Part shown: positions 1,378-25,394 of the stretch, one piece after another
Layout: each line of letters starts with the position of its first letter
How positions within the stretch are numbered: position 1 is the stretch's first letter
Assembly: GCA_965207735.1 (NCBI GenBank)
Contig: OZ242296.1
Span: 1,120,001-1,184,000, forward strand
Origin: Candidatus Versatilivorator sp.
Lineage (GTDB): Bacteria; Acidobacteriota; Terriglobia; Versatilivoradales; Versatilivoraceae
Length of the DNA stretch: 64,000 nucleotides
Direction: 5' to 3'
Notes under the pieces: model-generated
Told to the model about the DNA's origin: nothing
Database searches by the model: none
The model's input: the letters and a program-made list of their open reading frames with translations, nothing else
Made by a program: the position numbers and the translations under genes

Positions 1378-1713
1378 ATGGCGCGAGAGGCGACAGCCAC
1401 GGTGCGGGTGTCGGCCGCCGAGCTGGCCGAGTGGCGCGGCAAGGCGCGGGCGGCCGGGGTGTCGCTGTCCGAGCTGCTGCGCCGGGCCATGGCGCGGACC
1501 CGGACCTGGACGGCTGCTGCTGCCGCCGTGGAGCGGGAGCGGACCCGGGAGCTGGCGCGGATCGGAAACAACCTGAACCAGATTGCGCGCTGGGCCAACA
1601 CCTACAAGCAGGGAGCCGAGGCAGTTGCCGTGGTGGCGCATCTGTCGGCCATCCAGCGGGCGCTCGATGCGCTGTCTGGAGTCCACAGGGGGAGAGAGAC
1701 CGATGCACGTTAA
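1378..1713 (+). CDS. mobC: Relaxosome accessory protein MobC/MbeC (ribbon-helix-helix)
   Basis: N-terminal RHH pattern (TVRVSAAELAEW..A..GVSLSELLR) and MobC signature ELARIGNNLNQIAR; overlaps the relaxase start. Confidence 0.9.
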   Translation: MAREATATVRVSAAELAEWRGKARAAGVSLSELLRRAMARTRTWTAAAAAVERERTRELARIGNNLNQIARWANTYKQGAEAVAVVAHLSAIQRALDALSGVHRGRETDAR

Positions 1714-4431: not shown

Positions 4432-4948
4432 TATACCCCCATAAAATGATGGATGCAAGGGTACGGTGCGGACCGCTACGGGAAAAGGACGGATGCTCAA
4501 ATATAATTATAACTGGCAGTTATATAGACATTTATGGACATTACTGGACGTGGTTGGACGACCATCTCATTCTAAGTAAGGATTCCCTGCGGGAAGACGG
4601 AAGAGCCAATTTGGACCGAGATCGATAGGGAGGTGGTATGTTCCCAGAGAACCAGACCGGCTTTGAGGTCAGGGGTTCAATAGATTCTCGGCAGAACCTG
4701 TCCCACGACCAAGTAGTAGATTCAGGCTCGGATGGCCGAGAGGTGTCACTATGGGCGTGTAACCCTGGAGCTACCCCTGGCGATGAGTGGACAAATAAGC
4801 AAGAGCATTTATTGGCCAGCAGCGCGGGCGATGAGCGCGGGGTAAGTGGGGACGTTTCTCTTTGCGACAGTGATTAAAAAATGCTCATTCGTAGCGGAAG
4901 TTGAGGGGACGCAAGCCTGCCCGGCAAAGATCACGGATTGGGGGCAAC

Positions 4949-5525: not shown

Positions 5526-6335
5526 CTAGTTTAACGGTTGTTTGAGGTTTCGATGCGCTTCCTGGAGCCTGGCGGCAAGTTTCTGCGCCTCGCCTATTTG
5601 CTCGGCGGTCATCCTTGGTCTGAGCTCGTCCTTCAGCTTGAATGCTCTCTCGTCACCCTGGGCGGCGGCAAGAATGAACCAGGTGTAGCCTTGCATGTAG
5701 TCCTCCGGAACTCCCTCGCCTTTGGCGTACATGTCGCCCAACTCGTATTGTGCACTGGCATAGCCCTGCTCAGCGGCCAGCCGATACCACTTCACCGCCT
5801 CTTGGTGATTCTCAAGCAGCCCTCTGCCGTAGCGGTACATGAAGCCCAAGGCTGTTTGAGCCCTGGCGTGTCTCTGTTCGGCGGCTTGGCGGACCCACTT
5901 CACCCCTTTCCTGCTGTCCTTCGATACCCCCTTGCCAAGGAAGTACATGTGCCCCAGGGCGGTTTGAGCTTCGGCATCTCCCTGCTCGGCCGCTTTCCGG
6001 TACCACGTCGCTGCTTCTTGGTCGTCCTTCGGCACTCCCTCGCCGACGCGGTGCATATGGCCGAGATGGAGCTGAGCCCTGGCGAATCCTTGTTCGGCGG
6101 CTTGGCGGATCCACGTCGCGGCTTCCACGAGGTTCTCTGCTACCCCTTCGCCCCTGGCGTACATGCGGCCGAGCGTGAATTGCGCACTGGAATCTCCTTG
6201 TTCAGCGGCCTGGCGCAACTTTGTAATCTCCTGGTCCTCGGCGAGCCCAGGGCGAAACCCGGCCAGAACGACCACGGCAGCAAAGACAAGTATCGCCTGC
6301 CGTCGGCAAGTATTTCGGTTGGTCGTGATTTCCAT
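5526..6335 (-). CDS. Sel1-like repeat protein, exported
   Basis: About five repeats of AAEQG.A.AQ..LG.MY..G.GV; N-terminal hydrophobic signal. Confidence 0.92.
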   Translation of the reverse strand: MEITTNRNTCRRQAILVFAAVVVLAGFRPGLAEDQEITKLRQAAEQGDSSAQFTLGRMYARGEGVAENLVEAATWIRQAAEQGFARAQLHLGHMHRVGEGVPKDDQEAATWYRKAAEQGDAEAQTALGHMYFLGKGVSKDSRKGVKWVRQAAEQRHARAQTALGFMYRYGRGLLENHQEAVKWYRLAAEQGYASAQYELGDMYAKGEGVPEDYMQGYTWFILAAAQGDERAFKLKDELRPRMTAEQIGEAQKLAARLQEAHRNLKQPLN

Positions 6336-6806
6336 CGCACACTCCCATAGCTTGTTCAAATCTGGGTCTCAATAACGTTTGAGACAACTCACTCAGCCAT
6401 GTTCTTCGGAGTTGTTCTGGCGAGTCGATCACGTTCGAATCGGAGGATTTCTTGAATGCGGTCCAGTCCCTTTTCGTTTGACTCTCTCAACAGAACTGCC
6501 CTGAAGCTGGCCACACTCAGCCGTCTCTGCATCACGACAAGTCCTGATTCGTTACCTGGACATCAATTTGACGGATCGGCGCCGGCATATTCAGGCGAAC
6601 GTCTCTCAGCTAAAATTCGACCTAAAGCTCCTGGGCGGGTCGAAATTCTCCCAAGCGGTCCTCCGCGTTCTCGATCAGGGAAATGAACGGGGAGAGCAGA
6701 CTAGGGGTTCGGCTCAAATGCTACGCATGAGGCGCCCGCCGTCGCTCTCCATACCTGAGTGCCAGTTCGTCCACGGCATTGGCTCCTCCTCAAGGCCAAT
6801 TCATCA

Positions 6807-9503: not shown

Positions 9504-9547
9504 GAGAGATTGTCCTCCTTTCCTGCTTGCCAACTCCTGCTCAGGAT

Positions 9548-9967
9548 TCACTCGGTTTTTGGATCCACAGCGGTGGTGCTGTCACGACGGGTCTTTCTTT
9601 TCCGGAGGATCCTTTCCAGGTCCCGCAGGTCATCCAGGGTCAGTTTGCCTGTATCCGCCAGATGGGACATCACAGGCTGGGGTGAACCGCTGAACAACTC
9701 CAGAAAATCGTCCACCAGACGGCGGTAGGCCTGCGCGCGTGTAATGACTGGGACAAAGACATAGGCATTCCCGATCTTTCGCTGTTTCCGCAGAGCTCCC
9801 TTTGCCTCCAGGCGTAAGACCAGCGTCTGGACCGTCGTATAGGCGAGAGTCTTCCTTACAGGGAGTTGCTCCAGTACTTCCCTGATGGATGCCCTGCCGA
9901 GATTCCAGAGCGCTTCCATCGCCTTGAGCTCAAGAGGCGACAGTTTGATATTGTTCCTCTGTGTCAA
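9548..9967 (-). CDS. BlaI/MecI/CopY family repressor
   Basis: LSPLELKAMEALW, LAYTTVQTLVLRLEAKG, FSGSPQPVMSHL; TTG start after AGGAGG; directly upstream of the M56 gene. Confidence 0.9.
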   Translation of the reverse strand: MTQRNNIKLSPLELKAMEALWNLGRASIREVLEQLPVRKTLAYTTVQTLVLRLEAKGALRKQRKIGNAYVFVPVITRAQAYRRLVDDFLELFSGSPQPVMSHLADTGKLTLDDLRDLERILRKRKTRRDSTTAVDPKTE

Positions 9968-9980
9968 GAAAACACCTCCT

Positions 9981-10622
9981 TCAACTATTATCGCTGAGAA
10001 CAGGACTCGTGTTGGTGATCGTGTAGTCTTCCGGAATCGCAAAGACCGACGCACTCGGTTCCCCCTGCCGGAAGTCGAAGAATTCCACGATCCGACGGGT
10101 CCCACCAGGAAGGGTGAAGTCTGTTTTGACGACAAGCTGCAGGTCCTCGGAAAACCAGGAGGACGAACCGGGCGCCAACTGGCCATTCACGAAGACCGGC
10201 TTGCCCACGCACTCCACGCCATTGATGACTCGTCTGCCCAGGGTTTCCGATTCCGGTGGAACCCTGTAGGGAGAGGGCAGGAGCGGAAGCGGCAACTTTC
10301 TCATGAGCCGTGCGGTCTTCCGATCATGATTGATGAGATACACGTTGCCGGTGGCGGCATCCTTGAAATGCGCTCGTCCCTTCGGCTGTCCATCCTCGAC
10401 GCTGATCCGGGACCTCATCTCCGAACCTAAAGAAGCACGAAACAGCACACCGTTGGCCTCTTCCAGCAGTTCCTCCGAACCATCCGGCAGCGTTCGATAA
10501 GTAAGCTCTTTGAATTGAGCTGTTACGGGGAGCCACTGTCCTCGCAGCATCAGGGGAACGGTCAACCCGAAAGCAAGTGTGACGCAAACCGGCAGCAATC
10601 GGCTATTTGTCTTCCTATTCAT
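9981..10622 (-). CDS. Exported hypothetical protein
   Basis: GGAGG RBS, signal-like N-terminus, LGRRVINGVEC.G and EPSASVFAIPEDY motifs. Confidence 0.7.
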   Translation of the reverse strand: MNRKTNSRLLPVCVTLAFGLTVPLMLRGQWLPVTAQFKELTYRTLPDGSEELLEEANGVLFRASLGSEMRSRISVEDGQPKGRAHFKDAATGNVYLINHDRKTARLMRKLPLPLLPSPYRVPPESETLGRRVINGVECVGKPVFVNGQLAPGSSSWFSEDLQLVVKTDFTLPGGTRRIVEFFDFRQGEPSASVFAIPEDYTITNTSPVLSDNS

Positions 10623-10959
10623 CGTTTCACCTCCAAAGGCTCTAACGTTCCCGATAGAGAGTGATCCGTAGTCCCAACAGCGACTGAAGGGAAAACTGAT
10701 TTTCAGAATAAGGAGCTTAATCTATAGTTGAACCATATTTATAACCTCAAATGTAGTATACGTCAATACTCTTCTACCGGTGCGACGATTTCAATTGTCC
10801 TTGATGGAACGATGCCCCTGGAAAAACACACGTCGTGTTGCAGGGAAAAGCAGTCTTCGCGAGTGGAGGGAGCGACCTTTTTTGTCCGTTGGTGCGGCAC
10901 GAAACGAGGTTAACCGGCGCACGTAATGGCGCATGACTAACCCCGCCTCCGGGTTTCGG

Positions 10960-11104: not shown

Positions 11105-11203
11105 TTAGCCACGCTCTAGCCACTCGAGGATACGGGTAACGGTCCTGTTCCCCGCAGACGGAGGAATGAATCGGAGCAAGAAACAGGCTCACCCAATGAC
11201 CGA

Positions 11204-11630
11204 GGAACGATCGACGATTTCCGCTTCTGGGGGTCAAGCAGGTGGCGTTAGATGGGCCGCCACCTTTCCGACGGGGGGGTGGCGGTCTAACATGGCGGTG
11301 ATCCTGATACGGACAACGCCTCTCTCTCAGAGGGCAGAGACCTCGCCGTTGTGGTTGGAGGCATTCCCGAAGCGCCGCACCGGACGCGGAACGACAAGCA
11401 TTTTCGGCGTCCGCTGTGGAAAAGCGAAGCGAGGCTGCGCTTCGCGGGTCCCCCTCCCGCCCGGCGTAACGGCGCGCCGCACGAGAGGGAAGAAAGTGGT
11501 GAGAGCGACCCCGCCCTTTTGACCGCTAGTGCACCACGGGGGCGGACAAAGGTGGCGGCCAAGGTGGCGGTCCTTTGCCCCCCGTGCGGGGAGGTCGCTC
11601 TCACCGCAGTCATCCCTGGCGGGAAGGCCG
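11204..11630 (+). repeat. Conserved non-coding module, copy C (CCGCCACC octamers, 13-bp inverted repeat)
   Basis: Colinear similarity to 13897-14317 (reverse) and to 20791-20889 plus 22592-22936; IR at 11498-11510/11593-11605. Confidence 0.75.
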
Positions 11631-11698
11631 GAAGGCGAAAGACCTGGACCCGGAATGTCCTGCTCAACCTGGATTTGATTGCCGCCGGACTTTGCGCT

Positions 11699-12979
11699 TA
11701 GTGCATCACTCCAAAAATGCGATGATGTATTCGGTCAGGCCTAGGCAGCGGCAGTGTGAACCTCCAGAGCTTGGATTTTTTTGAGAAGCTTGTGGAGGTG
11801 ACGGCGCGTGAACTTCCATTGGAAAGGACTGGCGGCCTGCTCGTAGTGCTGTTGAAATCGAAGGAGGCGATCGGCGATTTCAGCGGTGGATTCAAAGTGG
11901 TTGGGTGTGAGGACCTTTCTCTGAATCACCGAGAAATAGATTTCTATCTGGTTCAACCAACTGGCATGGACCGGCGTGTGAAGAGGAACAATGTTCGGCC
12001 ATTGGGCCATCAGCCGGCGGTTACTGCGCTGGCCCCGATGGGAGGAGCCGTTGTCCATGATCCAGAACACGCGGCGAGCCGAACGATAGGGTTCCTCGGA
12101 CATGACCTGGGAGACCAAACGCTGGAAGGGCGCAATGCCAGTGGTGTGCTCACATCGTCCGAAGATCCTGGCGCGCCGAACATCCCAGGCTGCCAAGTAG
12201 GCAAGGGCGCCGCGCCGGGCATAGGCATGTTCGACGCGCATGGCGTGGCGCGGCGCCGGAGGGAGGCTCGGATGTTCCCGCCGGCGGGCTTGGATGCTGG
12301 TCTTTTCGTCGGTCGACACCACGCAATCGGCATCGCTGAGGGGGCGTCCCTTCCAGATGCCTTCATAGAGATCCAAGATGGGGCCGGCCTTCTGGGCAAA
12401 GTGGGGATCTCGGGGAAAAATCCAGCTTCGGTGAAACCAAGGCCGAATCGCATCCTGTGACAACCATCGCCAGATCGTGGTCTCTCCGATCGAAGCGACC
12501 AGTCCCCGACCAATGACCTCACGCTGTATCTCCGCCATGCTGAAGCGGGACAGCGGCAGACCATAGGTATGAGGCAACTCACAGGCCAGCGACTTCACTT
12601 CAACGACCACTTCGGGGGGGAAAGCGAGGCGGCCGGCCTCTGCGGGGAGCCTCCTCCAACCCGGCCAGACGATATTGGAAGAAACGTTTGCGCCACTTAC
12701 ACACGATCTGGGCCGACGTATCCAGTCGGGTTGCGATGTCTTTGTTGTCGAATCCCTGGGAGGCGTAGAGAACGATCTTGGCCCTAATAACATCAATATA
12801 CGATGATGTATATTTACGCGCCTTTGCCTCCAGAATTCTTTTTTCGGAATCGGTAAGAATGATCCTGAATGGGCTTGTCTTTGGCATAGAATTCTCCCTC
12901 CCCTCGGGAAGAATCCTATCCCATTATGCTTAATACCGCCAGACTTATATATCATCGTATTTATGAAATGGACTACTTA
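11699..12979 (-). mobile_element. IS630-family insertion sequence
   Basis: Imperfect terminal IRs (CTTAGTGCATCACTCCAAAAATGCGATG vs CTAAGTAGTCCATTTCATAAATACGATG), TA at both ends, DDE transposase. Confidence 0.85.
11741..12887 (-). CDS. IS630 transposase in two frames, probably joined by frameshift at TTTCCCCCCC (~12614-12623)
   Basis: ORF A (12600-12887) is an HTH ending RRGRPPRF; ORF B has STDEKTSIQ, IMDNGSSH, SWLNQIEIYFS. Confidence 0.88.
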
Positions 12980-13003
12980 GCTCCCGCCTTGGTCGGCGCC
13001 TCC

Positions 13004-13173
13004 CTAATCTGCGGGTTGCGGATCGTCCCCCGGCTCTTGGGCCAGGTAACGTGCCCAGTCCTCCATCAGGACACGCCGGCGGTCGAACAGGTCGGAGCGG
13101 GCATAGGCCGCCTCGACCCGGTTGCGAACCACATGCGCCAGGGCCGCCTCGATCACCTCCCGGGGATGGTCGG
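13004..13173 (-). pseudogene. 3' part of split integrase int3, containing the catalytic His and Tyr
   Basis: DHPREVIEAALAHVVRNRVEAAYARSDLFDRRRVLMEDWARYLAQEPGDDPQPAD*; joins in frame to 24320-25394 through the shared 12-mer. Confidence 0.85.
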
Positions 13174-13257
13174 ACCGCTGAAAAATTTAGATAAAGTATT
13201 TATTACAATATACTTATACCTCATGGGCTGGCTTGTGGTCTCCCAATAGGTCACCCT
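13162..13257. other. Putative attL: core, AT-rich tract and arm-type site
   Basis: Core 13162-13173, AT-rich tract ~13180-13217, GTCTCCC and GTCACCC repeats at 13238 and 13250. Confidence 0.7.
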
Positions 13258-13582
13258 CTATCAAGGTGGTCTCGGAATCCGTTTTGGTGCAGAAAACCCG
13301 GGTAACTGTTCGGTCAAGCTGTGGGGTCCATCCGCCGTCCGGGGGAGGCGTAGCGAGCAGAACCGGCGGATCGCCCGTGATTGCAGGCACCTCCAACCTC
13401 GTCCGGATCCAAGCCAGCACGGCCTGACCGAACAGTTACAAAACCTAACAGCTGACGCTACCGGGGATTTGAGGTGAGGACGTACAATCGGATCAGATGA
13501 CCATACAGCGCTTCCGGGCCATGGGGAAGACCTATTCTCGATGAAGTGTTGGGCTTTCGGCCCGACTTCATTGAGCATCAGC

Positions 13583-13806
13583 CTAGCCGGGGTCCATCCA
13601 GGGATGGGTTCGAGGGGCGCGGGCCTGACCGGTGTCGGCCAGTTCATTCGCATCCGTGGGAGCGGCACCGCGCTCGCGGTCGAGGGCCTCATCAATGAGG
13701 GCGGCAGCCGGGAGCCGAGGTTGAGGTGCCGCCGGGTGCGGAGGCGCTGGAGGCGTTGACAGGTCTCGGAAGAGACGCGGATACGAAGTGGAACACGGTG
13801 CAACAT
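13583..13806 (-). pseudogene. Frameshifted RHH-like small gene remnant
   Basis: VPLRIRVSSETCQRLQRLR in one frame continues as AALIDEALDRE in another. Confidence 0.35.
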
Positions 13807-13896
13807 AAGATACACGACAACACATAAAGCAACAATCAGGTTACGAAGCTACACGGGGCGACACTCAACCACCATAAGCGCGCAACGGCGCTCGAT

Positions 13897-14317
13897 GGCC
13901 TTCCCGCCAGGGATCACTGTTGAGAGAGCGACCTCCCCAAAAGGGGGGCAAAGGGCCGACACCTTTGCCGACACCTTTTCCCGCGCCCGTGGCGCACCAG
14001 CGGGGAAAAAGGGGGGGTCGCTCTCTCCACCAGCACCCCTCTCGTGCGGCGCGCCGTTTCGCCGGGCGAGGGGGGGACACGCGAGGCGCAGCCTCGCTTC
14101 GCCTTTTCGCAGCGGACGCGGGAAATCCGTGTTGTTCCGCGTCTGATGAGGCGTTTCGGGAAAGTCACGAACCACAACGGCGAGGGAGCGCCCTCTGAGA
14201 GAAAGACGTTGTACGTAGCAGGATCTCCGACATGTTAGTCCGACACCCCCCCTTCGGAAAGGTGTCGGCCCATCTGACGACACCGCCTTGACCCCCAGAG
14301 TCGGAAATCGTCGATCA
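13897..14317 (-). repeat. Conserved non-coding module, copy B (CCGACACC octamers)
   Basis: Reverse homologue of 11204-11630; IR at 13922-13933/14016-14027; GGCCGACACCTTT at 13954 and its complement at 14258. Confidence 0.75.
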
Positions 14318-14631
14318 TTTCGCGGCCGGTGGAGGTTGGCGTTTCCTGGTCCCATTGGTCGATCTTCTCCATGACGACACTGAGGCCGGCGTGGCGTTCG
14401 ACGGTGTCCTGTCCCCTGAATCCGCGAGCTTTGCCGGGCAGGCTGGACTTTCTCACTCTCTGGCATACCAGAACTCCCCGAAACGCCTCCTGGACCGATT
14501 CCGCTCTCAGAGACCGCAGGTCTCGCCGCCTGTGGGGAAATCGGAATGGCCGGCCCCGACAGTGAACCGCACTGGGGCGTGGTCGCAATTCGGTCTCGGC
14601 CAACCGTCCCTCCACCTGCACCCCTCTCGCA

Positions 14632-15715
14632 CGGCGCGCCGCCGCGCGAGGCGGGGACAGCGGGGCCGGCGCCGCACCGCGTAGTGCCGGGGAGCCAGCC
14701 TACCCAAGTAGAGTCGAGGACTGGCGCGTTGACTATAGGGTCCGGTGGCTATTCCGTCGCTTTCGCTTCGGGCCTCAGTCCGGCTCCCCTATCACGTTTC
14801 CAGTCCCCGCTCTCCGAACCGGACGTGCGGTTTTCCCGCGTCTCGGCTCTCCAGTGGGATCATGCATCTCGCACACAGGTCCCCGGTCGCATTCGTGGAC
14901 GACTCCTGCGGGATTGGCACCCTCCCCTACTCCATCCACTTCCGCTCCCGGGTTGCCGCCAGGCCTGTTGACGCCCTGACGACGCCGGCGTCCTCCGCCG
15001 ACCCCTTCACTTTTGGATGTGATGCTTCCGGAGTCTCCGGTCCTTTTGCCGGGGTTTCAGGCTTTCGCCACTCCCGAGACCCTTCCCCCTTCGGTCACCG
15101 CTCCTCACCTGAGGCCCCTTCCCTCCACGGGCGTTACCCCGCTTCTCCAGTACTACAGGCCTCTCCGCCACCCTGCAGGCCCGGCCTGCCCCTCGCGGGG
15201 TCCCGGTTGATGTGTGCCACATCTCCCCCAGGGCTTCCCGTGTTGCCACCTTCTTCCCCTTCCATGCGTGCCAGCGTCATTACCCCGACGGAAACGGATC
15301 GGTGCCCGCGTCGCTCACTTCCCCATCCGCCAACGGCCTTCCCCTAATTACAGGAGGGTCGGCTTCCGTATCGCCCTGTTTCGAGGCCTGCTCGACGTTC
15401 ACTCGCGTTCCGGCCCGCATGGTCGCTGAACCGCCTCAGAGCGGCCCTTTGTCACCAGAGTGCTTCAGACCATTTCGTTACCTCCATGATCCGCCCTGGC
15501 TGCTACCAACCGGAGCGACAGTTGTTGGGCGGGGTTCGCACCCGCCGGAAGAAGGCGCCTTTCCACGGCGCACTGTAATACATTGGGGCTGGCGAGGGGC
15601 TCCGGCCCCTGCGAACCCCCGACCCGGCGGGAGCGCTCCCCTGGCCCCCCCATCACCCCCGCCGCTCCCTTCTCCCTCTCCCATGACGGAGGCCTCGATG
15701 GCGCCAGAAGCGACG
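14632..15715. other. Second oriT-like region interrupted by a group II intron and followed by a few-codon mobC stub
   Basis: 14632-14707 plus 15574-15715 closely match 1181-1395, including CCTCGATGGCG at the mobC start. Confidence 0.7.
14708..15573 (-). ncRNA. ORF-less group II intron (866 nt)
   Basis: 5' end GTGCG, 3' end CTCTAC; domain V GAGCCG-AGAC-GCGG-GAAAA-CCGC-AC-GTC-CGGTTC (~14816-14850); EBS1 UGUAAU (15347-15352) complementary to IBS1 AUUACA; precise insertion without target duplication compared with the empty site at 1259/1260. Confidence 0.92.
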
Positions 15716-15727
15716 GGGAAGTTTTCG

Positions 15728-16094
15728 ACCACAACGGCGAGGGGGGCGCCCTCTGAGAGAAAAGCGTTGGGGGTGGTGAAGTCACGCGCCACCCCTGTGC
15801 GCCACCAGGGCTTTTTGGGTGGCGCGTTGGTCCGACTCCACCGCCTTGACTCCCAGAGGCGGAAATCGTCGATCAGTCCTCGGCCGTTCGAGGCCGGGTT
15901 CTCCTGCTCCCATTGGACGATCTTCTCCATGACGACATCGACGCTGGCGTGGCGTTCGATGGTGTCCTGACCCCCCTGAATCCGCGAGATTTGCCGGGCA
16001 GGCTGCCATTTCCAAGCCCCTGGCATGCCAGAGCATCCCGGAACCCGTTCCTGGACCGATGTTCCTCTCAGGGACCGCAGGTCCCGCCGCCTGT
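15728..16094. repeat. Diverged direct repeat of 14171-14533 (GCGCCACC octamers)
   Basis: Shared blocks ACCACAACGGCGAGGG, CCGCCTTGAC.CCCAGAG, GATCTTCTCCATGACGAC, CTGAATCCGCGAG, GACCGCAGGTC. Confidence 0.8.
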
Positions 16095-16295
16095 CGCTCC
16101 CCTCGAAATATTCCCTGGCGCAAGGCCAACGCGCCGCTGGCGGTGCGAAGACCAATTACTGCCGTCGTTGCGGACGCCTGTGGTGAGCGGGCATTAGTCT
16201 GTATGATAGGCTCGTTCTCGTCGACGGACGTTCGCTCGCTCGTCATCAAAGTCGGTGAAGCGGCGGTCGCCACCTAGCTCTTCCACGTCTCAACG

Positions 16296-16868
16296 ATGCC
16301 AAAGCCACCGGGAGACAATTCCTCGCTTCGCGAACACTTCGCCTGGACCTATGGGACGCTCGCCATGGTCCACGCCGCTGTCAAGGACGGCAAGACCCGC
16401 TACAAGCCGGTGCACTTCATCATCCGCGGTCGGTTCCGGCACGGATTCCTGTCCGGCACAATGCGGATGCGCCCGCTGCACGACGACGAGAAGACCAAAA
16501 TCGCTCACGCGACAACGTGCTGCTACTGCGGTCGCGAGGCAAAGCTCTCATTGGATCATCTGATCCCTAAACTCAAGGGCGGACCCGACGCCGCCGACAA
16601 CATCACCTACGCATGCAGAAGCTGTAACTCGTCCAAGGGATCGAAGGACATGGTGCTCTGGCTCGTGTCGAAGGGCCGATTTCCTGCGATCCTGGTCCTT
16701 CGCCGGTACCTCAAGCTGGCGGCTCGCTGGTGCGAGGACGCGAAGCTAATGGAAGCGTCATGGGCTGACGTCCCTGACGCCTCACTGCCGTTCGACAAGC
16801 GGTCCCTAAGAGTTAAGTGGCCGGAACTGTCCGTACACCGGTTGTGGCCTGACCCGCCGGAGCCATGA
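16296..16868 (+). CDS. HNH endonuclease
   Basis: CCYCG..LSLDHLIP..GG.D..DN....CRSCNSSKG. Confidence 0.88.
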   Translation: MPKPPGDNSSLREHFAWTYGTLAMVHAAVKDGKTRYKPVHFIIRGRFRHGFLSGTMRMRPLHDDEKTKIAHATTCCYCGREAKLSLDHLIPKLKGGPDAADNITYACRSCNSSKGSKDMVLWLVSKGRFPAILVLRRYLKLAARWCEDAKLMEASWADVPDASLPFDKRSLRVKWPELSVHRLWPDPPEP

Positions 16869-17021
16869 GCCGTCGTCGGCGACTAGCGCCTGATGCTGCT
16901 GGACGACGTAGGGTTGATGGACGATGGTACTCGTCGCCGCAGGCAATCGGGTTCGACGAGCAGAGCTGTGGGGAGGACTTGCCGTGGCGCTCGTGCGACG
17001 CCACGGCGAACAATCGCCCCG

Positions 17022-17303
17022 TCATGCAGCACGTTCAGTTGTGCAAGCGTTGCTCCTCTGCTTGGCTCTACGGCCGTCGGTAACTCGTTCGTCGGTGAAC
17101 GGCCGGGACGAGACCCGGCAATTGAGCAGGGATTTAGCGCGTCGCCGGACGTAGAAGCGGTTGGCTCCCTGCAGGTAGAAGGCGAGCTGGTCTCGGGTGA
17201 ACAGGCCCGAGTGCAGGCCGACCAGCGTGATCCACTCGGCCTGTTGCCGGCGGAAGCCAAGAGGTTCCAGCAGTTTTTCGCGTCCCTTCAGGTGGGCAAT
17301 CAT
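17022..17303 (-). pseudogene. Probable truncated element-associated hypothetical protein
   Basis: Plausible N-terminus (MIAHLKGRE..LEPLG...QAEWITLVGLHSGLFTR.Q) that decays into low-quality sequence. Confidence 0.4.
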
Positions 17304-17781
17304 GGTTTCCCTGGTCCTGGTCCTGGTCCTTGTCCTGGGCGTGGGGCCTCCATGCCGGCAGACTCAAGCTTGCTGAAAGCTCTCAGCGTGTCGAAGAGGG
17401 CGGTGGTCCGAGTGTTGTCCCATGCTTGGAGACCGGCACACACACTCTCTCAGAGGTGCACCCCCCCTTCTGTGGAGTCGGTCCGTGGGGAGGTGAGCTA
17501 TATGAGGTTATCAGCTGGCCAGGACAAAGACGTGAAGCGGACGCGAGACAAGGACGGATGGTTTTCCATGAGGGGAGTTTTCTCCGGACAATGCGGACCG
17601 GAGCAAGAATTCCAGAAGACCTCCCCTCAGGCAAGGAAAACGTGCACGCCGCTTGCGGCGGAGTCGAATGCCCCCAACCCCCTCCCAAAACACAACGGAC
17701 AGAGATTTTGGACACCTCACGGGATTCACCTTACAATGGCTCCTGCGCTTTCCTGGAGAACAGGACCACATCGGCCGAAAA

Positions 17782-18474
17782 ATGGAAAAACGGAGGAGAT
17801 CCGGGATATTTGGCTGGAGTGCGTTCCACGGCTGGATGTCATTCGACAAGCTGGACGAGGGCGACGGCTTGACGAGAGCGTTCACGATCGGCTACCGCTT
17901 GACCGATGATCGCGACGACCCATGGACGGCTCGGTTCAATGCGTTCAAGGACAAGGAACGTGCGGCCCTCCGCGGCGCGGCGGCAATGATGCAGGATGCC
18001 GTCCCCGTTCTCGTCAGGGGTCTTGGACTCGAAATCTCGAAGACCGTCTTCATCCCGGCGTTATCATCAGGGGAGACGGTCGCGTCCCCCTCCGGCGTAT
18101 TGTGGCGCTTGACACAGCACTGCGCCAAATATGCGGCGGTGGAATTCTCGGGCGACAGGATCACGAAAAAGGCGCACGAGAAACTCCACATGTACTCCGA
18201 TGCTACCAGAAGGCGAGCTGTTCTTGCCGCCGCCGATTTCAGGTCGAAAGAGGTACACGCCGAAAACGTCCTGATTCTCGACGACTTCATCACACGCGGC
18301 ACCACAATGTCGCACATCGCAGGAGCCATTCTGAGACGGAATCGCGGGCTCAGGATCTTCGCCGTCGCGCTCGGAAAGACGGAACGTCGTAGCTACTGGC
18401 GGGGGTTCGGTAAAGAAATCTCGAATGAGCATGTCTCGCCTAAGTCGGGGAGGAGGTGGATGAATGCGACGTGA
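17782..18474 (+). CDS. Phosphoribosyltransferase-fold protein (ComF-like; resembles the ShosT PRTase domain)
   Basis: PRPP-binding loop NVLILDDFITRGTTM; overlaps the DprA-like gene start. Confidence 0.8.
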   Translation: MEKRRRSGIFGWSAFHGWMSFDKLDEGDGLTRAFTIGYRLTDDRDDPWTARFNAFKDKERAALRGAAAMMQDAVPVLVRGLGLEISKTVFIPALSSGETVASPSGVLWRLTQHCAKYAAVEFSGDRITKKAHEKLHMYSDATRRRAVLAAADFRSKEVHAENVLILDDFITRGTTMSHIAGAILRRNRGLRIFAVALGKTERRSYWRGFGKEISNEHVSPKSGRRWMNAT

Positions 18475-19459
18475 TTTAGCCGGCGCGTCACTGACCGCGG
18501 TCTCGATCCTCGCGCTCATGAAGCTTCAACGCATTGGGCGGAAGACAGCTCTGACGATTGTCGATCGACCGATCAACGAAACAGAACCCAGAAGCTGCCG
18601 CGAAGCCCTGCTGGACCGCATGGTCCGGGCGCGGCTGCCGCGTGTTCAGTCGGCAACAATCTCGGATGCCTGGATGAGAAGCGAGGAACAACTGAACCGA
18701 GGCTCCGAGTTCGGCGTGCACGCAATCTCATTCCACGATGAAGGGTATCCCACCCGTCTGCGGAAGATCCCCGATCCACCGGCCCTGCTGTTCGTGAAGG
18801 GGAACGCGCAGGGCATGAGCACGTCGCGAGCCCTGGCGGTAGTGGGAACCCGCAAGCCAACGCCGGACGGGAAGATGCTGGCTCTGAGATCGGGACGCAT
18901 AGCCGTTCAAAGCGGCTATGCGATCGTCAGCGGCCTCGCTCTTGGATGCGACACGTATGCGCACAAGGGGTGCCTCGAGGCGGAAGGCATCGGCGTAGCG
19001 GTTCTGGCCCACGGATTGGACAGAGTCTGTCCAGCTGCGAATCGCGATCTGGCGGATCGGCTCGTGGAAACCGGAGGCTGCCTGACGAGCGAGTACCCGG
19101 TGGGAATGACGCCGATACGCTCAGCGTTCGCCGATCGCGACCGTATTCAGAGCGGACTGTCCGATGGCGTGCTCGTCATCGAGACGGATATCAGGGGCGG
19201 GACGATGAACACCGTGCGCTCTGCCCTCAAACAGAAACGTGCGCTCGCGTGCATCCACCTCGACCACCTGGAACGCTTTTATTCGGAAGAGACGACCCGA
19301 GGCAATCGAAAACTCGTGCAGCAGGAGGACGCGCGGCCGATTGCGAATCGCACGGCACTCATCGAGTTCCTGAAGGATCTGCGGCAGCCGAATGCGCCGC
19401 AGCCTGATCCAGAGCCCGCGGACACCATCCGCGAGACTCAGATGTCGCTCGGGTTCTAA
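18464..19459 (+). CDS. DprA/Smf-family protein (ShosA-like)
   Basis: YPTRLRKIPDPPALLFVKG, AVVGTRKPT, IVSGLALGCDTYAH, SEYPVG, RDRIQSGLS. Confidence 0.92.
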   Translation: MRRDLAGASLTAVSILALMKLQRIGRKTALTIVDRPINETEPRSCREALLDRMVRARLPRVQSATISDAWMRSEEQLNRGSEFGVHAISFHDEGYPTRLRKIPDPPALLFVKGNAQGMSTSRALAVVGTRKPTPDGKMLALRSGRIAVQSGYAIVSGLALGCDTYAHKGCLEAEGIGVAVLAHGLDRVCPAANRDLADRLVETGGCLTSEYPVGMTPIRSAFADRDRIQSGLSDGVLVIETDIRGGTMNTVRSALKQKRALACIHLDHLERFYSEETTRGNRKLVQQEDARPIANRTALIEFLKDLRQPNAPQPDPEPADTIRETQMSLGF

Positions 19460-19460
19460 G

Positions 19461-19961
19461 GTGATCATCTTCGATTTCGATCTCACGCTCGTCGACACGA
19501 AGCCCGTTGAGGCACTGCGGGCGGCCCGAAAATGGAGATCGGTCCTGGATCGGGCACCGGCACTGAAAGTATATGACGGCGTGTACGAACTCCTCTTCGA
19601 CCTCGATGCCCGCGGCCAGACGCTTGCGATTGTCACAATGAGCCCGGACATGGTGCCTCGGGATTTCGTGCATCGTTACCGGTGGCCGATCGGCTTGGTG
19701 ATCGGTTACCACCAGGTGAGCAGGCGAAAGCCGAACCCGGAAGCGCTGATTCTGGCCATGCGCGAGGCTGGCGCCAAACAGAACGAGACGTTCCACATCG
19801 GGGATCAGCCCGAGGATACGGAAGCCGCCCGACGGGCTGGCATCGTCGCAATAGGGGCGGGGTGGGGATCGGTTGATATTGGACTTCTCAGAGCATCAAA
19901 TCCCGATTACCTGTTCACGTCAGTCCAAGAGTGCCGGGAATTCCTGTTGGCGGCCCTGTAG
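19461..19961 (+). CDS. HAD-superfamily hydrolase
   Basis: Motif I FDFDLTLVDT, IVT, KPNPE, IGDQPED; GTG start 1 nt after the DprA stop. Confidence 0.88.
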   Translation: MIIFDFDLTLVDTKPVEALRAARKWRSVLDRAPALKVYDGVYELLFDLDARGQTLAIVTMSPDMVPRDFVHRYRWPIGLVIGYHQVSRRKPNPEALILAMREAGAKQNETFHIGDQPEDTEAARRAGIVAIGAGWGSVDIGLLRASNPDYLFTSVQECREFLLAAL

Positions 19962-19964
19962 GCG

Positions 19965-20170
19965 CGTCACCGGCTTCCAGTCATTATCGCGGTTCCCGCG
20001 CCGCTCGAAGAAGGCATCCCTCGCTACGGGAAGGAGTAGATTGTCCGAGATTGCCGCGGTCTCCTCCCCCTCCCGCCAAGCCTGTTCCAAGATCCAGAGT
20101 TCGCCCGCGAGTGCCCTCCTCTCCTGTTCCAGATCAATAGGTTCCTCGACTGGATCATCCCATAGGAGAC
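19965..20170 (-). pseudogene. Possible C-terminal fragment of a hypothetical protein
   Basis: Helical, protein-like segment EQERRALAGELWILEQAWREGEETAAISDNLLLP with no credible start. Confidence 0.3.
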
Positions 20171-20889
20171 CCGTCCCATGCCGACACTTTCTCCATCCCG
20201 GCCCGACATGGTCCCTCTGGCCATCCTCGAAAATCACGTCGTTGTCGCCGCCGTCCGCTTCCGAGCCGGCTTGACGGGCTGCCTATCTCCGGTGGGACTG
20301 TTGTCTGGGCGCGCCCTGCACGGCTACGTTCGCACCGAAGGCCAGTCTGCCCGCTGGGGCCAGGTCTAGGGCATCGGCTGGGAACAGGCCGACGCGGCTG
20401 ACGCCGGAGGCGGAATTGCAACGCGACCAACAGAGAGGCGAAGACGATGAACAAACGGCATGGGAATTTAATTTGCCATACCCCAGCAGATGCTTCCTGT
20501 CGAGTTCCAAACAAAGGGGACTACAACCGAAAGTGGCGAGTCCCCTTATTGACGTTCGCGGGGCTTGTCGATCCAGCGCGGTATTTGGGAGGGAAACCGA
20601 ACTGGGCGCGGTCCTGGTCGCAATCGAGGGAGTGGTCAAGCTTGCCGAGCAGGTCGGCAGGAGGGTACTCCTTTTTCCATGAGGCCACCGAAGACCATGA
20701 GGCGGCGGGTGCAGCGTCGGGCCACAGGGGGGAAGGGAAGCGGAAGTGAAAGGACCGCCATCGAACGCCATGGCGGACTCGGCCGGAGCAGGAACGATCG
20801 ACAGACTCCGCCTCCGGGGGTCACGCCCGTGCCGTCGTATCGGTGGCCATCTTACAAAGGGGGGGTGGCTCACCGAGGTGGCTCACTAG

Positions 20890-22587
20890 CCCGCATTTCT
20901 CACCAGAGTTCGCACAGGAGCGGTAAAAGGGGCCATGGAGGCATTTGAGGCCGAGTTTAACAACGTTGGTGGCTGGATCGGTAGGCAAAGGCCAACAGCG
21001 GAGGCTTCTGAGGCTCTCCGAGGAACCTCAGGCGGCATTTTCCCTCGAAAACAGCGACACCTCTGCCATCGGGCCTGGTGGCCGCGTCTTCAAGGGCCAG
21101 GAGTGACGGTCGGGTCAGGGCACCTCAGGGCGGCAGGTGAGCCCAAGCGATGCGGAACTCCCTCTGGTAAGGACATCCGGAAGCCATGGCGACCTTGATG
21201 CGACGGACCGAGATGGTGACCTGAGCGCCGATCTTGAGCAGTTTGAGTCTGATGGAACCGACGGTGGCCCGGGCCAGGCAGGTGGATTGCAGCGCCCGCC
21301 GGCGCAAGCCCTCCACCAGCACATAGGCGAAAGAGGTCATCAGGAGCCGGAGCTGATTCGCCCGGAAGGAGTGGGTGGAGGTGCGATCGGCAAACAGGTC
21401 GAGTTGCTGCTCCTTGATGCGGTTTTCCATCTCACCGCGGGCACAGTAGATCTTCTCATAGAGGAACTGGGCGGGGTAGTCCTGGACCGACAGAGAGGTG
21501 ACGACGAAGCGGGGGTTGGGGCCGCGGGGCAGGACCTCGGCTTTGGCGACCAGGCGGCGCTCGTGGGACCAGCTCTTGTGAGTGCGGTAGGAGAGGTCGG
21601 TGAAGATCCGGGCGGGCTGCTGTTGCTGGTCTGAGAGGGCCTGGGCCTGAGCCAACTCGGGGGCGATGGCGTCTTGGAGGCGGGAGTTGCGGGCCAGGCC
21701 GAAGAGATAGTCGACCTGATGCTGCTCACACCACCCCATCAGCTCCTCACGGGCAAAGCCGGAGTCGGCCCGCAGCAGGATCTTGACCTGAGGCCAGACA
21801 CGCCGTAGGCGGGAGACGATGCGCTGGACCTGCTCCAGAGCGCCGGCGGAGGCATCGATGTTGGCGGGTCTGAGCAGGGCCGAGAGCAGATGGCGGCCCG
21901 AGAAGATGTAGAGGGGCAGGTAGCAGTAGCCTCGGTAGTAGCCGTGGAAGAAGCGGTCCTCTTGTTCCCCGTGGAGGGGATCGTCAGTGGCGTCGAGGTC
22001 GAGGATGATCTCATCGGGGGGTTGGGGATGGGCTTGCAGAAACAGTTTCACCAGGAGGGCTTGCAAGGCCTCGGGGTCGTGGTCAATCTTGTGGTAGCGG
22101 GTGGGGCCTTGGGTGGGGGCGTGTTCGAGTCGGTTGAGGGTGCTCTTGCCTGCCAGGGGAGGCGAGTCGCCACGACGGCCTTTCTCTGAAAACAAGGCCA
22201 TGAGGGGATCGTGACGGAGTTGGTCGTGGTCGATGAGATCCTCGTAGCCGAGGGCGATGCCACGGATGCGCTGAGCGATGAGGGTGCGCAGGCTGTATTG
22301 GGTCCGCTTGGGGTCGCGGTGATCGGTGAAACAGTCGGCCACCTGGTCGGAGAGAGATAAGCCCCGATCCACCCGGCGCAACAGCAGGGAGCCGGCATCG
22401 GAAGTGATGGGACCGCCGTCGAAATCAGCCACCACGCGGCGGCGGCCGTGGGGTTCAAACTCCAGGGGTTTGGTGTTACACTGTGTCGGCATCGGTTCTC
22501 CTTTAAGAATCTGGTTAACTCCTTAGACAAGAGTATTTTACCAGATTCCGAGAACCGATGCTTCCTACCTCTGGTGAGAAATGCGGG
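20890..22587 (-). mobile_element. IS1380-family insertion sequence
   Basis: Perfect 19-bp terminal IR CCCGCATTTCTCACCAGAG; CTAG target duplication at 20886-20889 and 22588-22591. Confidence 0.93.
21125..22492 (-). CDS. IS1380 transposase
   Basis: FDGGPITSDAG, LDLDATDDPLHGEQE, LRADSGF, Y.ARGEMENRIKEQQ. Confidence 0.95.
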   Translation of the reverse strand: MPTQCNTKPLEFEPHGRRRVVADFDGGPITSDAGSLLLRRVDRGLSLSDQVADCFTDHRDPKRTQYSLRTLIAQRIRGIALGYEDLIDHDQLRHDPLMALFSEKGRRGDSPPLAGKSTLNRLEHAPTQGPTRYHKIDHDPEALQALLVKLFLQAHPQPPDEIILDLDATDDPLHGEQEDRFFHGYYRGYCYLPLYIFSGRHLLSALLRPANIDASAGALEQVQRIVSRLRRVWPQVKILLRADSGFAREELMGWCEQHQVDYLFGLARNSRLQDAIAPELAQAQALSDQQQQPARIFTDLSYRTHKSWSHERRLVAKAEVLPRGPNPRFVVTSLSVQDYPAQFLYEKIYCARGEMENRIKEQQLDLFADRTSTHSFRANQLRLLMTSFAYVLVEGLRRRALQSTCLARATVGSIRLKLLKIGAQVTISVRRIKVAMASGCPYQREFRIAWAHLPP

Positions 22588-22996
22588 CTAGGTGGCTCAC
22601 GCTTTTGACCACCCCAACGCTCCTCTCTCAGTGGGCAAATTCCTCGCCGTTGTGGTCCAGGCTATGCCCGGGAATCCGCATTGGACAAGGGTTGGCACGG
22701 ATTCCCCAAATCCTCTGCGGTAAATCGCAATGCGGCGCCGCGCCACGGTGTCCCCGCCTCGCACGGCGCGGCGTGGCGCCGCACGGGAGGGGGAGGAAGT
22801 GGAGGGAGCGACCCCGGCTTTTTTGCCGCTGGTGCGGCACCGGGCAGGGGTAGGTGGTGCACGCCAAAATCCACCACCACCCCTCCCCTTTTCGGGGTCG
22901 CTCCCTCCACAGTGATCCCTGGCGGGAAGGCCGCCGTAGCGGTGACGAAGCCCGGATCGGAACACTGACCACAGGGGGAGCACGAGAGGGGCCAAC

Positions 22997-24166
22997 TCAG
23001 GCAGCGGCCGTTTTCCGGCCCGCGCCCAGGAATACCGCCCACTGCTCCATCAGGACGCGCCGGCGCTCGAACAGGTCCGAGCGGGCGTAGGCGGCTTCCA
23101 CTTGGTTGCGGACCACGTGCGACAACGCTGCCTCCATCACGGCATGGGGCGCATCGGTCTGCTCCCCCGCCCAGTCCCGGAACGAGGAGCGAAACCCATG
23201 CGGCACGGCCCCGATTCCCAGTTCCCGCAGCAGGGTGCTGAGATCGCGGTCCGGCAGTGGGCCACCGGCCGGAGTCGGAAACACCAGATTGGAAGATCTC
23301 TCGATCCGCCTCGCTTCAGCCAGAATCCTCCGCGCTCCCGTAGACAACGGGACCCGGTGCTCTCTCTGGTGCTTCATCCGTTCCGGGGGAACCGTCCACA
23401 CTCCCGCCTCCAGGTCGATCTCCGCCCAGCGCGCCCCGCGCATCTCCCCCGACCGGCACGCCGTCAGCACCAGGAACTCGAAGCCGAGCTTGACCCCCAC
23501 GTCTGCTTCCGATTGCCGCACTGTCCGGATCGCCCCGGCCACCTCCCCGTAGGGCAGCGCCTTGAAGTGGCGTTGGATGCCGCCCTGTTTCGGCAGCGCG
23601 GCCCCGAGCGCCTCCCCGGCCGGATTGTCCATCCGGTAGCCCTGGGCAATGGCCCACTTCATCACCGTGCCGATCCGTTGCCGCACCCGCCGGGCCGTTG
23701 CCTGCCTGGTGTTCCAGATCGGCGACAGCACAGCCATGACATCGGCCGTGGTGATCCCGTCCACCCGCATCCGGCCCAGCTTGGGGTAGACGTAGCTGCG
23801 CAGGCTGCCTTTCCACTGAGCGGCGTGATGGTCGCTTCTCCAGTTGGGCCGGTACATGGCGTAGACCTTGGCGGCGGCCTGCTCGAAGGTCGGGACGGAG
23901 TGGCGCCGGGAGGCCAGGGGATTGCCGCCGGAGCGGGCCAGCCGGCGGTTGGCGATGGCCCTCTCCCGGGCCTGGGCCAGCGTCACGAGCCGAAGAGAGC
24001 CGAGACCCAGCTCGCGGCGCTTGCCGTGGATGAAGAGCCGTTGGATCCATTGCTTGTATCCGGAGGGCTTGACCCGTAGGATCAAGCCATGCTCGTCCCA
24101 GTAGAGTCCGGGCTGCTCGACGGTGCGGACGAAGGCGGCGGAGAGTTTCTTGCGGTAACGAGTCAC
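22997..24166 (-). CDS. P4-like tyrosine integrase (int2, intact), integrase of the inserted element
   Basis: LTACRSGE, PHGFRSSFRDW, LSH, EAAY; arm-binding N-terminal domain. Confidence 0.95.
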   Translation of the reverse strand: MTRYRKKLSAAFVRTVEQPGLYWDEHGLILRVKPSGYKQWIQRLFIHGKRRELGLGSLRLVTLAQARERAIANRRLARSGGNPLASRRHSVPTFEQAAAKVYAMYRPNWRSDHHAAQWKGSLRSYVYPKLGRMRVDGITTADVMAVLSPIWNTRQATARRVRQRIGTVMKWAIAQGYRMDNPAGEALGAALPKQGGIQRHFKALPYGEVAGAIRTVRQSEADVGVKLGFEFLVLTACRSGEMRGARWAEIDLEAGVWTVPPERMKHQREHRVPLSTGARRILAEARRIERSSNLVFPTPAGGPLPDRDLSTLLRELGIGAVPHGFRSSFRDWAGEQTDAPHAVMEAALSHVVRNQVEAAYARSDLFERRRVLMEQWAVFLGAGRKTAAA

Positions 24167-24169
24167 CGG

Positions 24170-24331
24170 ATCACCCCCTAGAAAATCACCCTATAGATCA
24201 CCCTGAACGTCCAGGAACACCCTGGACATCAATAGACGCCAATATACCATAAGTGACTCATACAAGTCTACTTACAATACTTTAGTAGATGTCTCTGGAA
24301 CTTTCTGGACTCTGCACTGGGGGATGGTCGG
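24170..24331. other. Putative attR: arm-type repeats and core
   Basis: ATCACCC at 24170, 24185 and 24197; AT-rich TAAGT..ACTTA tract; core at 24320-24331. Confidence 0.7.
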
Positions 24332-25394
24332 TCTCTTCGGCCGCCCAGTCCCGGAAGCTGGAGCGGAAACCGTGCGGCACCGCCGCAACCCCAAGCTGGC
24401 GCAGCAGTCGGCGCACCGCGCTGTCATGCAGTGGCTTCCCGCCCCCATGGGTGAACACCAGCGGACCGGCTCCCCCTTCCAGTGCCTCCGCTGCTTCGAG
24501 AATCTCCAGGGCTCGGCCACACAGCGGCACGCGGTGCCGGCGGTTCGTCTTTGCCCGCTTGACCGGGACGATCCACACCCTCCCGTTGCGATCGATCTCC
24601 TCCCACTCGGCCCACCTCACCTCACTCCACCTGGCCGCCGTCAGCACCAGGAACTCAAGGGCCAACCTGGCGGCCGGCAATGCGGTCGATGCCCGCACCT
24701 TCCAGATCACCGCAGCCGCCTCCCGATGGGGCAAAGCCCGCATGTGCTCGGTCACGTCCTTTTGGGGACCCAGCACCGGTCCGATCCGGTCACAGGGGTT
24801 GTCGATGCGGAACTCCATGGTCACGGCCCATTCCAGAACCGCATGCAGGCGCTGGCGCACCCGCTTGGCCGTGGCTACCTTCCGGTGCCAGAGGGGCGTG
24901 AGGATCTCAAGCACGTCGGCACTGGTGACCTCGGAGACGGGCACCTTGCCGATGCGGGGAAAGACGAAGCGCCTCAAGCTCGACTGCCACTCCCGGGAAT
25001 GTCTCGGGTTCCGCCATCCGCCCCGCTTCTGTTCCAGCACACGCATGGCGGCTTGGGCGAAGGTGGGAATACCCTCGGCGCGCCGCTTCTCGGCAAGCGG
25101 GTCCCCGCCCGTTCGGGCGAGCTTTCGGTTCGCGAGCGCCTTCTCCCGGGCCTCGACCAGGGAAACGAGGGCAACGCTGCCGAGTCCGAGCTCACGGCGG
25201 CGGCCACGGATGAGGAGGCGTTGAATCCAGCTGCGTGTTCCGCTGGGCTGGACGAAGAGGTACAATCCGTTTCCATCAGCGTGTCTTCCGGGCGGAGCAG
25301 AGCGAATGAAAGCAGGAGAGAGAGCCTTATGGGGATGGCGGCCCTTGGGTTTCGTTTTAGGTAGCAGACGGGCTGTACGTGATCCAGTAATCAT
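24320..25394 (-). pseudogene. 5' part of split P4-like integrase int3 (lacks the C-terminal catalytic His and Tyr)
   Basis: Integrase sequence runs to PHGFRSSFRDWAAEETDHP, then 12 unrelated residues and a stop (ORF 24282-25394). Confidence 0.9.

Follow-up and report, generated by a model that had tools for sequence, protein, structure and literature searches.

A repeated module in a Candidatus Versatilivorator genome as the probable transfer origin of a MOBC-like conjugation system

What is the ~430-base piece of DNA that recurs, with changing short repeats, in the genome of a Candidatus Versatilivorator (phylum Acidobacteriota), and which protein, if any, reads it? The question is raised by a 64,000-nucleotide stretch of contig OZ242296.1, positions 1,120,001 to 1,184,000 (the window, whose own numbering is used below unless genome coordinates are named). 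An earlier note, made from these letters alone, had described three colinear non-coding copies, one of them split by an IS1380 element, with octamers and inverted repeats peculiar to each copy, and had proposed an iteron-type replication origin with element-specific specificity, or else a structured RNA or single-stranded DNA element. We call the repeated DNA the module, and give the name X to a gene whose 3′ end makes up the first ~110 bases of the module. In our reading, to which we assign a probability of about 0.68, the module serves a conjugation system as its origin of transfer (oriT), and the predicted relaxase of that system is X, encoded directly upstream. Sequence comparison and modelled structure point to a real, conserved cis element with a testable protein-DNA code, which most likely is the transfer origin of a system that is MOBC-like but distinct. 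The copies and fragments in the window are the following:

11204-11630, plus strand: module copy A, with a decayed X 3′ end (11156-11281, stop inside), three 5′ repeats (11257-11298), two loop repeats (11551-11570) and a tail (11612-11627)
11498-11605, plus strand: core inverted repeat of A, a candidate nick region, with arms 11498-11510 and 11593-11605
13897-14317, minus strand: module copy B, with 5′ repeats (14227-14268), loop repeats (13956-13975), tail (13899-13914) and arms 14016-14027 and 13922-13933 forming an exact inverted repeat
14247-14408, minus strand: open remnant of X running into B (last ~54 codons, 59% identity to X residues 275-328)
20791-22936, plus strand: module copy C, in pieces 20791-20889 and 22592-22936, with tail 22915-22930 and arms 22799-22816 and 22893-22910 forming an exact inverted repeat
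20890-22587, minus strand: IS1380-family element at the third 5′ repeat of C, with a 4-bp target duplication
15714-15966, minus strand: copy D, the 5′ half of a fourth module, with an X 3′ remnant (15811-15966) and three repeats (15786-15825)
17067-17294, minus strand: part of gene X (residues 21-95, from the winged helix), of helix type QGANRFYVRR
14607-14687, minus strand: middle part of a module (profile positions 262-347), truncated at the left arm and joined to a homologue of 1180-1400
10861-10951, plus strand: fragment that includes the left core arm (nhmmer)
409-482, plus strand: fragment of the module 5′ part, the X-coding tail (nhmmer)
835-874, minus strand: fragment with the right arm and tail (nhmmer)

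The three copies and the IS1380 insertion in C are found where the earlier note had placed them, its fragments elsewhere in the window were recovered by nhmmer, and the inverted repeats of A, B and C are all perfectly complementary, as it had said.

The module and the gene upstream of it

Translation of the DNA upstream of all module copies gave a shared reading frame, which is the end of an unannotated gene of ~330 codons (X). The claim that no reading frame is conserved does not hold, since the first ~110 nt of the module are the 3′ end of X, and X can be recognized by tblastn upstream of most copies: it is intact at five places in the genome, and a 3′ remnant precedes most of the other copies. 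The variability of the three codon positions, 0.14/0.16/0.20 in the X-coding part and 0.20/0.18/0.19 past the stop, gives a slight signal in the same sense. A decayed gene, an outcome that the note had set against its own proposal, is what was found for these ~110 nt only, and was rejected as an explanation of the whole; a transposon end or miniature inverted-repeat transposable element was also rejected, because the flanks of the module are X tails and attachment (att) junctions. Nor is the window devoid of a cognate gene, as had been supposed, in view of the X fragment at 17067-17294.

A search of the 5.26-Mb genome with a profile built from module copies returned 46 full-length copies, in addition to the split copy C and about 40 partial matches. 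In the window, A and B are 84% identical, B and C 71%, A and C 69%; copy A as a DNA query has matches in 13/13 genomes of the same genus and in 0/27 others. Relatives of the X protein number 1,988 at 90% clustering and 1,642 clusters at 50% identity, and X is present in 31/301 genomes sampled from the phylum; it was not found in the viral contigs searched, nor in the plasmid collection.

We collected 183 distinct X loci, 128 of which had enough flanking sequence for gene context to be read (close kin included). X lies between virB6/8 and virD4 in 73/128 loci and adjoins an integrase in 23/128; among the remaining loci ten show virD4 only, six virB only, and 16 none of these. With genes assigned by Pfam, the operon runs virB2, B4, B9, B10, VirB5-like, B6, B8, X, module or gap, virD4, virB11 (for example in L059, L060, L066, L068 and L074). 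The genome studied here has an integrative and conjugative element (ICE) of its own, at 1.84-1.87 Mb, in which a full module separates X from virD4. Among the ICE proteins scanned we recognized no other relaxase family, and in a genome-wide search for five relaxase families the sole match was the MOBP gene of the window, the only canonical relaxase found in this genome. A transfer origin is likelier than a replication origin of the phage P4 type because X occupies the relaxase position in virB/virD4 operons. Beside the ICEs there are small elements that consist of integrase, X and module only, and most copies in the genome retain just the tail of X.

Downstream of X the module has a conserved core, an inverted repeat free of mismatches over 9 bp or more around GCGACC/GGTCGC, which we scored in loci with 600 bp of downstream sequence. 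It is found 3′ of X in 125/158 loci, relatives at 25-30% identity included, and many of the 33 loci that miss it show one or two mismatches; the corresponding counts are 5/160 for upstream windows, 0/183 for X genes and 16/2000 for random windows. Across 106 distinct arm pairs, Watson-Crick pairing holds at 1227/1272 core positions, and four positions show several kinds of pair.

A few loci depart from this arrangement or add to it. L062, L063 and L064 hold X relatives without the inverted repeat and with metabolic genes on their flanks, and are possibly domesticated or stranded. The distant, soil-type loci L069, L070, L071, L073, L074 and L076 have a gene of ~100 codons separating the inverted repeat from virD4, and lack the tail motif. 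Elements with X and module often carry defence-type cargo (L027, L061, L068, L290, L291): type I and MmeI-like restriction-modification, Mrr, AbiEii-like ATPases, a set resembling the cyclic-oligonucleotide-based antiphage signalling system (CBASS), HicB and ArdC.

Predicted fold of X and its tie to the repeats

In the structure model of X (predicted local distance difference test, pLDDT, 88.7) residues ~30-110 match MarR/ArsR-like winged helices with Z 6-6.8. The C-terminal domain, modelled alone, has its best matches in SdaI, NucS, AF1548, XisH and FokI (Z 5.9-7.3), including the PD-(D/E)XK nucleases SdaI (Z 7.3, root-mean-square deviation 4.2, 125 aligned) and NucS (Z 6.9, root-mean-square deviation 3.1, 102 aligned). 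Polar residues R116, R127, D132, E146, K149 and D198 are kept in relatives down to 25-30% identity. Distant X relatives are colinear, end to end, with proteins of the Replic_Relax family (HHalign probability 68.6%, E 4.6e-5, 198 columns), whose profile PF13814 is that of MobC relaxases (PMC5357655). X would therefore appear MOBC-like in its predicted layout, yet is not a filed member of MOBC. Two further searches returned a match in BFVD to gp146 of Bacillus phage G (E 4e-4), for which no family was found, and, in the ESM Atlas, unnamed clusters, the nearest named entry being DUF5697 at 0.86, a lead only; the DUF5697 profile matched nowhere.

The repeats of each module comprise 3-5 short sites and one or two more in a hairpin loop, and they change together. 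An automatic 6-mer finder proved too noisy to score them and was replaced by reading of aligned sites. A first set consisted of 25 loci from one clade with five aligned TG-NNN-CA sites per module. The same triplet is shared by 160/246 site pairs within modules, against a fraction of 0.093 when sites are shuffled among modules (maximum 0.163 in 5000 shuffles). The overall identity of X does not track the triplet (r = −0.02); once it is removed, positions 5, 8 and 3 of the predicted recognition helix lead all 155 variable X columns in how well they follow the triplet, and the score of the top column was reached in 0/3000 label permutations, which ignore kinship. The variable positions of the helix are on average 25% identical and the rest of X 72%; L246 and L283, with 92% identity over X apart from the helix, differ in both helix and triplet. 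The middle base of the triplet is C in 12/12 loci with Lys at position 5 and in 1/13 with other residues, a rule that was picked after viewing these same data.

In a second set of 38 loci the site pairs are again concerted, 174/223 being identical versus 0.21 when shuffled, with seven loci tied between two triplets. Here a middle C goes with Arg at position 5 in 4/4 loci, which come from about two lineages, and occurs in 0/34 without Arg. In the genus of the window, read by eye, helix GYAKSSANRF goes with the C repeat, and RLAPRTARDF with the A repeat (intact X of locus L018); four of the intact X genes of this genome carry GYAKSSANRF, the helix type of C. No intact cognate X for the B repeat type was found among the loci read. 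This comparison of loci shows that the repeats of the module follow the predicted recognition helix of X. The earlier note had proposed a search for a co-occurring Rep or primase gene whose sequence tracks the octamer, and a gene that tracks the repeats does exist, in X, which is not a primase.

Some of what had been said of the octamers needs to be modified. Each copy was thought to repeat its own octamer in both orientations: this is so for A and B, with four exact occurrences each, and not for C, whose three occurrences have a single orientation (the D fragment also has three). Neither A nor B holds any of the other three octamers, and the words had been taken as copy-specific; they are instead specific to types, the C type, the commonest, being present in 24/47 genome copies and the B type in 4/47, according to crude regular-expression classes in which about three rows were mis-parsed. 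Their concerted change stands insofar as repeats co-vary within modules; it fails in copy C, whose 5′ array and loop carry different words.

Probable transfer origin and rival explanations

If the module is an oriT, X would bind its repeats through the winged-helix domain and would nick within or close to the conserved inverted repeat, 150-250 bp from the repeats; VirD4 would then export the nicked strand. Elements with an integrase and no X, such as those of the window, would depend for mobilisation in trans on an X whose helix matches, and small hitchhiking elements appear to have copied the module dozens of times through the genome. A bolder version, which we put forward tentatively and hold to be somewhat doubtful, is that X represents a large unrecognised relaxase family in which the metal-binding Glu of MOBC has become Tyr, maybe with a different nicking chemistry, that three helix residues code for the central oriT triplet, and that more than a dozen specificity groups, together with their hitchhikers, compete within single genomes of sponge-associated bacteria.

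A number of observations weigh against the transfer reading. X has no significant match in Pfam, NCBIfam or PHROG, nor a significant sequence match in the PDB; the PF13814 profile matches 0/29 X proteins and none in this genome. All fold scores quoted above for X are below Z 8, the threshold of trust of the tool; Foldseek returned nothing in the PDB at E≤0.001; and the HHalign probability against Replic_Relax is 34% for the whole X family and 1-11% for other alignment pairs. The MOBC catalytic motif PD...E-x-D is incomplete in X: Tyr196 stands in the column of the catalytic Glu in 112/118 close and 41/55 far relatives, and the PD aspartate, present in 47/55 far relatives, is replaced by Leu in 81/118 close ones, the clade of this genome; Asp198 is retained. 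As to the repeat code, besides the after-the-fact choice of the Lys rule, a tree-based pair test of the helix rule gave 4.7 of 5 pairs in the same direction (p = 0.0625), kinship confounds the column scan of the second set (r = 0.37, with non-helix columns close behind), and L277, L008 and L097, the last two in the genus of the window, are exceptions to the link between helix and repeat. The 5′ array and loop word agree in only 16/47 genome copies (crude classes); this mismatch may reflect recombination or tuning to a helper. Finally, the ICE also carries a primase-helicase and a RepB-type primase.

Our main doubt is whether the predicted relaxase X cuts at all: it may not, because Tyr replaces the catalytic Glu and the PD aspartate is missing in the close clade. 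X could accordingly be a catalytically dead or accessory DNA-binding protein, and the module an operator or relaxosome scaffold in front of virD4, with the nick made by another, unrecognised enzyme. Besides the incomplete PD-(D/E)XK triad, such a role would suit the position of the module in ICEs, directly before virD4, with a Shine-Dalgarno-like purine run in its tail, and the uncharacterised genes that lie between virB8 and X in some elements. It is at odds with the conservation of the nuclease-like domain and of its polar residues at 25-30% identity, and with the small elements of integrase, X and module, in which there is no virD4 to regulate. We consider it unlikely.

The origin and crr of phage P4 are built of short iterons in both orientations, and the module resembles them in the orientation of its repeats, in the P4-type integrases nearby and, in some copies, in a similar word. 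It differs in that the small elements lack an alpha-type primase-helicase, the cognate protein being X and the context conjugation. The part of the earlier proposal that survives is the element-specific specificity, as concerted repeats track X; the part that yields is replication, for which transfer is the likelier substitute. In its replication form the idea would make X the initiator that maintains excised circles, as might be expected from the iteron-like layout of the repeats, from the annotation of Replic_Relax members for replication as well as relaxation, and from the integrase-X-module elements, where no other replication gene is in view. The two roles can also coexist, because relaxases can start rolling-circle replication too (PMC5714925). 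A pure replication origin is nonetheless improbable in our estimate: it has to contend with the 73/128 loci in which X sits between virB8 and virD4, with the separate primase genes of the ICE, with a module that is GC-rich throughout and has no AT-rich unwinding region beside its repeats, with the silencing that 46 chromosomal copies of a live origin would need, and with the absence of X relatives from the plasmid collection.

The structured RNA of the note, which would be non-coding and would pair with targets through its repeats in the manner of C4 antisense RNA and the CI RNA of phage P4, is disfavoured and in our view very improbable. The folds are stable (z-scores from −2.8 to −7.3 with 25 dinucleotide shuffles), the stems show compensatory changes, and one 5′ hairpin depends on G·U pairs on the top strand; both strands, however, fold about equally, and by our own pair counts G·T wobble in the core occurs eight times on the top strand and ten on the bottom among 1272 pairs. 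Because this wobble shows no strand bias, a DNA palindrome fits the core inverted repeat better than an RNA stem does, on the sequence comparison made here. An Rfam scan of window positions 1-30000 at E≤1 gave no match on the module and group II intron matches only, and the repeats track a protein helix.

We give hardly any credit to the repeats as arm-type sites of the neighbouring integrases, with the module as attachment site: nearly all copies do lie near integrase genes or remnants and one subfamily recombines in the tail, but nine integrases whose arm domains are at least 94% identical (mean 97%) adjoin at least five repeat types, for which reason we do not take the repeats for arm sites, and moreover in ICEs the module is far from the integrase, and the att arms proper are AT-rich sequences that precede integrase genes.

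The nested array and comparable systems

The window holds several integrative elements inserted into one another, with the following features:

13162-24331, minus strand: 11,158-bp integrative element that holds its own integrase besides B, D, C and the X fragment
22997-24166, minus strand: P4-type tyrosine integrase of the 11,158-bp element, convergent with copy C
24282-25394, minus strand: older P4-type integrase, interrupted at 24320, with its 3′ end displaced to 13040-13173
3196-4500, minus strand: integrase of the subfamily that inserts into module tails
4582-4598, plus strand: attR of a 13.2-kb element, its core being a module tail; the attL is a cut module tail at genome position 1111385, left of the window
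attL/attR pairs in module tails (genome coordinates): 639340/636443; 1016823/1013926; 2496212/2498925; 1111385/1124582, the last belonging to the integrase at 3196-4500

The genome has 26 long integrase genes, in subfamilies with different targets. One subfamily inserts into the module tail, as seen from these four att pairs, and past the attR at 1013926 the sequence continues as in an uninterrupted sister copy; another targets integrase genes, the case in the window being the 11,158-bp element, which has a 12-bp direct repeat at its ends and interrupts the older integrase gene in frame. The displaced 3′ end of that gene is followed by IS630 and copy A. Tail-inserting and integrase-gene-inserting subfamilies therefore account for the nested array. 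A joint of 13161 to 24320 was seen in contigs of three runs; intact paralogous integrases could give the same joint and cannot be told apart from it, so that excision of the element is not shown by it. The four tails used for integration have a short form of the core, and most intact tails one extra base (about 30 versus four, by eye), which could be an escape from the integrase or an excision scar. Three further integrase subfamilies use short non-tRNA sites, one of which is a palindrome resembling repetitive extragenic palindromes (REP). In the window itself ARAGORN found no tRNA.

Other genes and elements accompany these. ColE1-like mobC and the MOBP relaxase (MbeA-like) lie at 1378-3199 (plus strand), within the 13.2-kb element in the module tail. 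A GC-rich hairpin stretch of ~40 nt is common to the module middle and the region upstream of this mobC (1180-1228, 14607-14687, 22742-22800), and might be a single-strand priming signal, a RepB-type primase being encoded in the ICE. At 14708-15574 (minus strand) there is a group II intron without an open reading frame (Rfam D1-D4, domain V-VI), in a copy of the 1180-1400 region that precedes mobC; its empty site is at ~1258, and an intron-free joint of 14707 to 15574 occurs in contigs of three runs. The cargo of the 11-kb element at 16296-19961 (plus strand), an HNH nuclease, an unannotated gene, a DprA-like gene and a HAD hydrolase, is possibly a defence cassette. Between integrase elements, at 5526-10000 (minus strand), are a Sel1-repeat gene and a BlaI/BlaR-like pair, that is, a penicillinase repressor and an M56 peptidase fused to carboxypeptidase-regulatory repeats.

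Literature searches found no paper on the X family or the module, most subscription papers being outside their reach; the closest known systems are nevertheless instructive. In plasmid pAD1 of Enterococcus faecalis the nick site (nic) is said to lie inside a large inverted repeat, and the repeats reportedly set plasmid specificity, as described by Francia in 2002 and 2013. The pAD1 relaxase TraX (PMC7117660) combines a winged helix with a restriction-nuclease-like domain, and the five direct repeats that it binds are 70-120 bp away from nic (PMC12857230, PMC5714925), and mobilisable elements with their own VirD4 encode MobC (PMC5704250). X has the same two-domain layout, as predicted, as pAD1 TraX (acting at oriT2) and CloDF13 MobC, its repeats would likewise be apart from the cut site, and its gene also stands beside that of a VirD4-type coupling protein. 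Unlike TraX and MobC, X misses the Replic_Relax profile and the PD...ExD motif; unlike those of pAD1, the repeats that go with X occur in direct as well as inverted orientation, a hairpin loop enclosing one or two of them, and comprise more than a dozen types tied to variants of the X helix. X, moreover, accompanies a Gram-negative VirB system, in Acidobacteriota and Gemmatimonadota.

The pWBG749 family of Staphylococcus aureus has several oriT subtypes, one residue of SmpO switching the preference, with repeated switching across the tree, and oriT mimics are carried by elements without a relaxase (PMC8136818). Subtypes set by a DNA-binding protein and relaxase-less mimics would thus recur here, with the difference that SmpO is a separate small accessory protein and the predicted reader a domain of the candidate relaxase X itself, and that the mimics are chromosomal integrase elements. 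In Streptococcus agalactiae, elements named IME_oriT have tyrosine integrases that insert specifically into the oriT of conjugative elements, and mobilisable genomic islands without a relaxase move in trans (PMC5704250). Provided that the module is an oriT, the tyrosine integrase with an att core inside the module is a parallel case; unlike in IME_oriT, the target is the tail just past the inverted repeat and not a mapped nic, the inserted elements often bring an extra copy of the module, and a second subfamily targets integrase genes.

By standard profiles, many conjugation clusters of Acidobacteriota and Gemmatimonadota seem to have no relaxase. If X is a relaxase and the module its oriT, these elements and the integrase-only islands become one recognisable transfer network, in which the link between helix and triplet predicts the islands that each X moves and the one to three substitutions that would switch the preference. 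Such a system would suit the study of relaxases bound far from their cut site, a matter still open for MOBC (PMC12857230), as well as that of how transfer specificity evolves.

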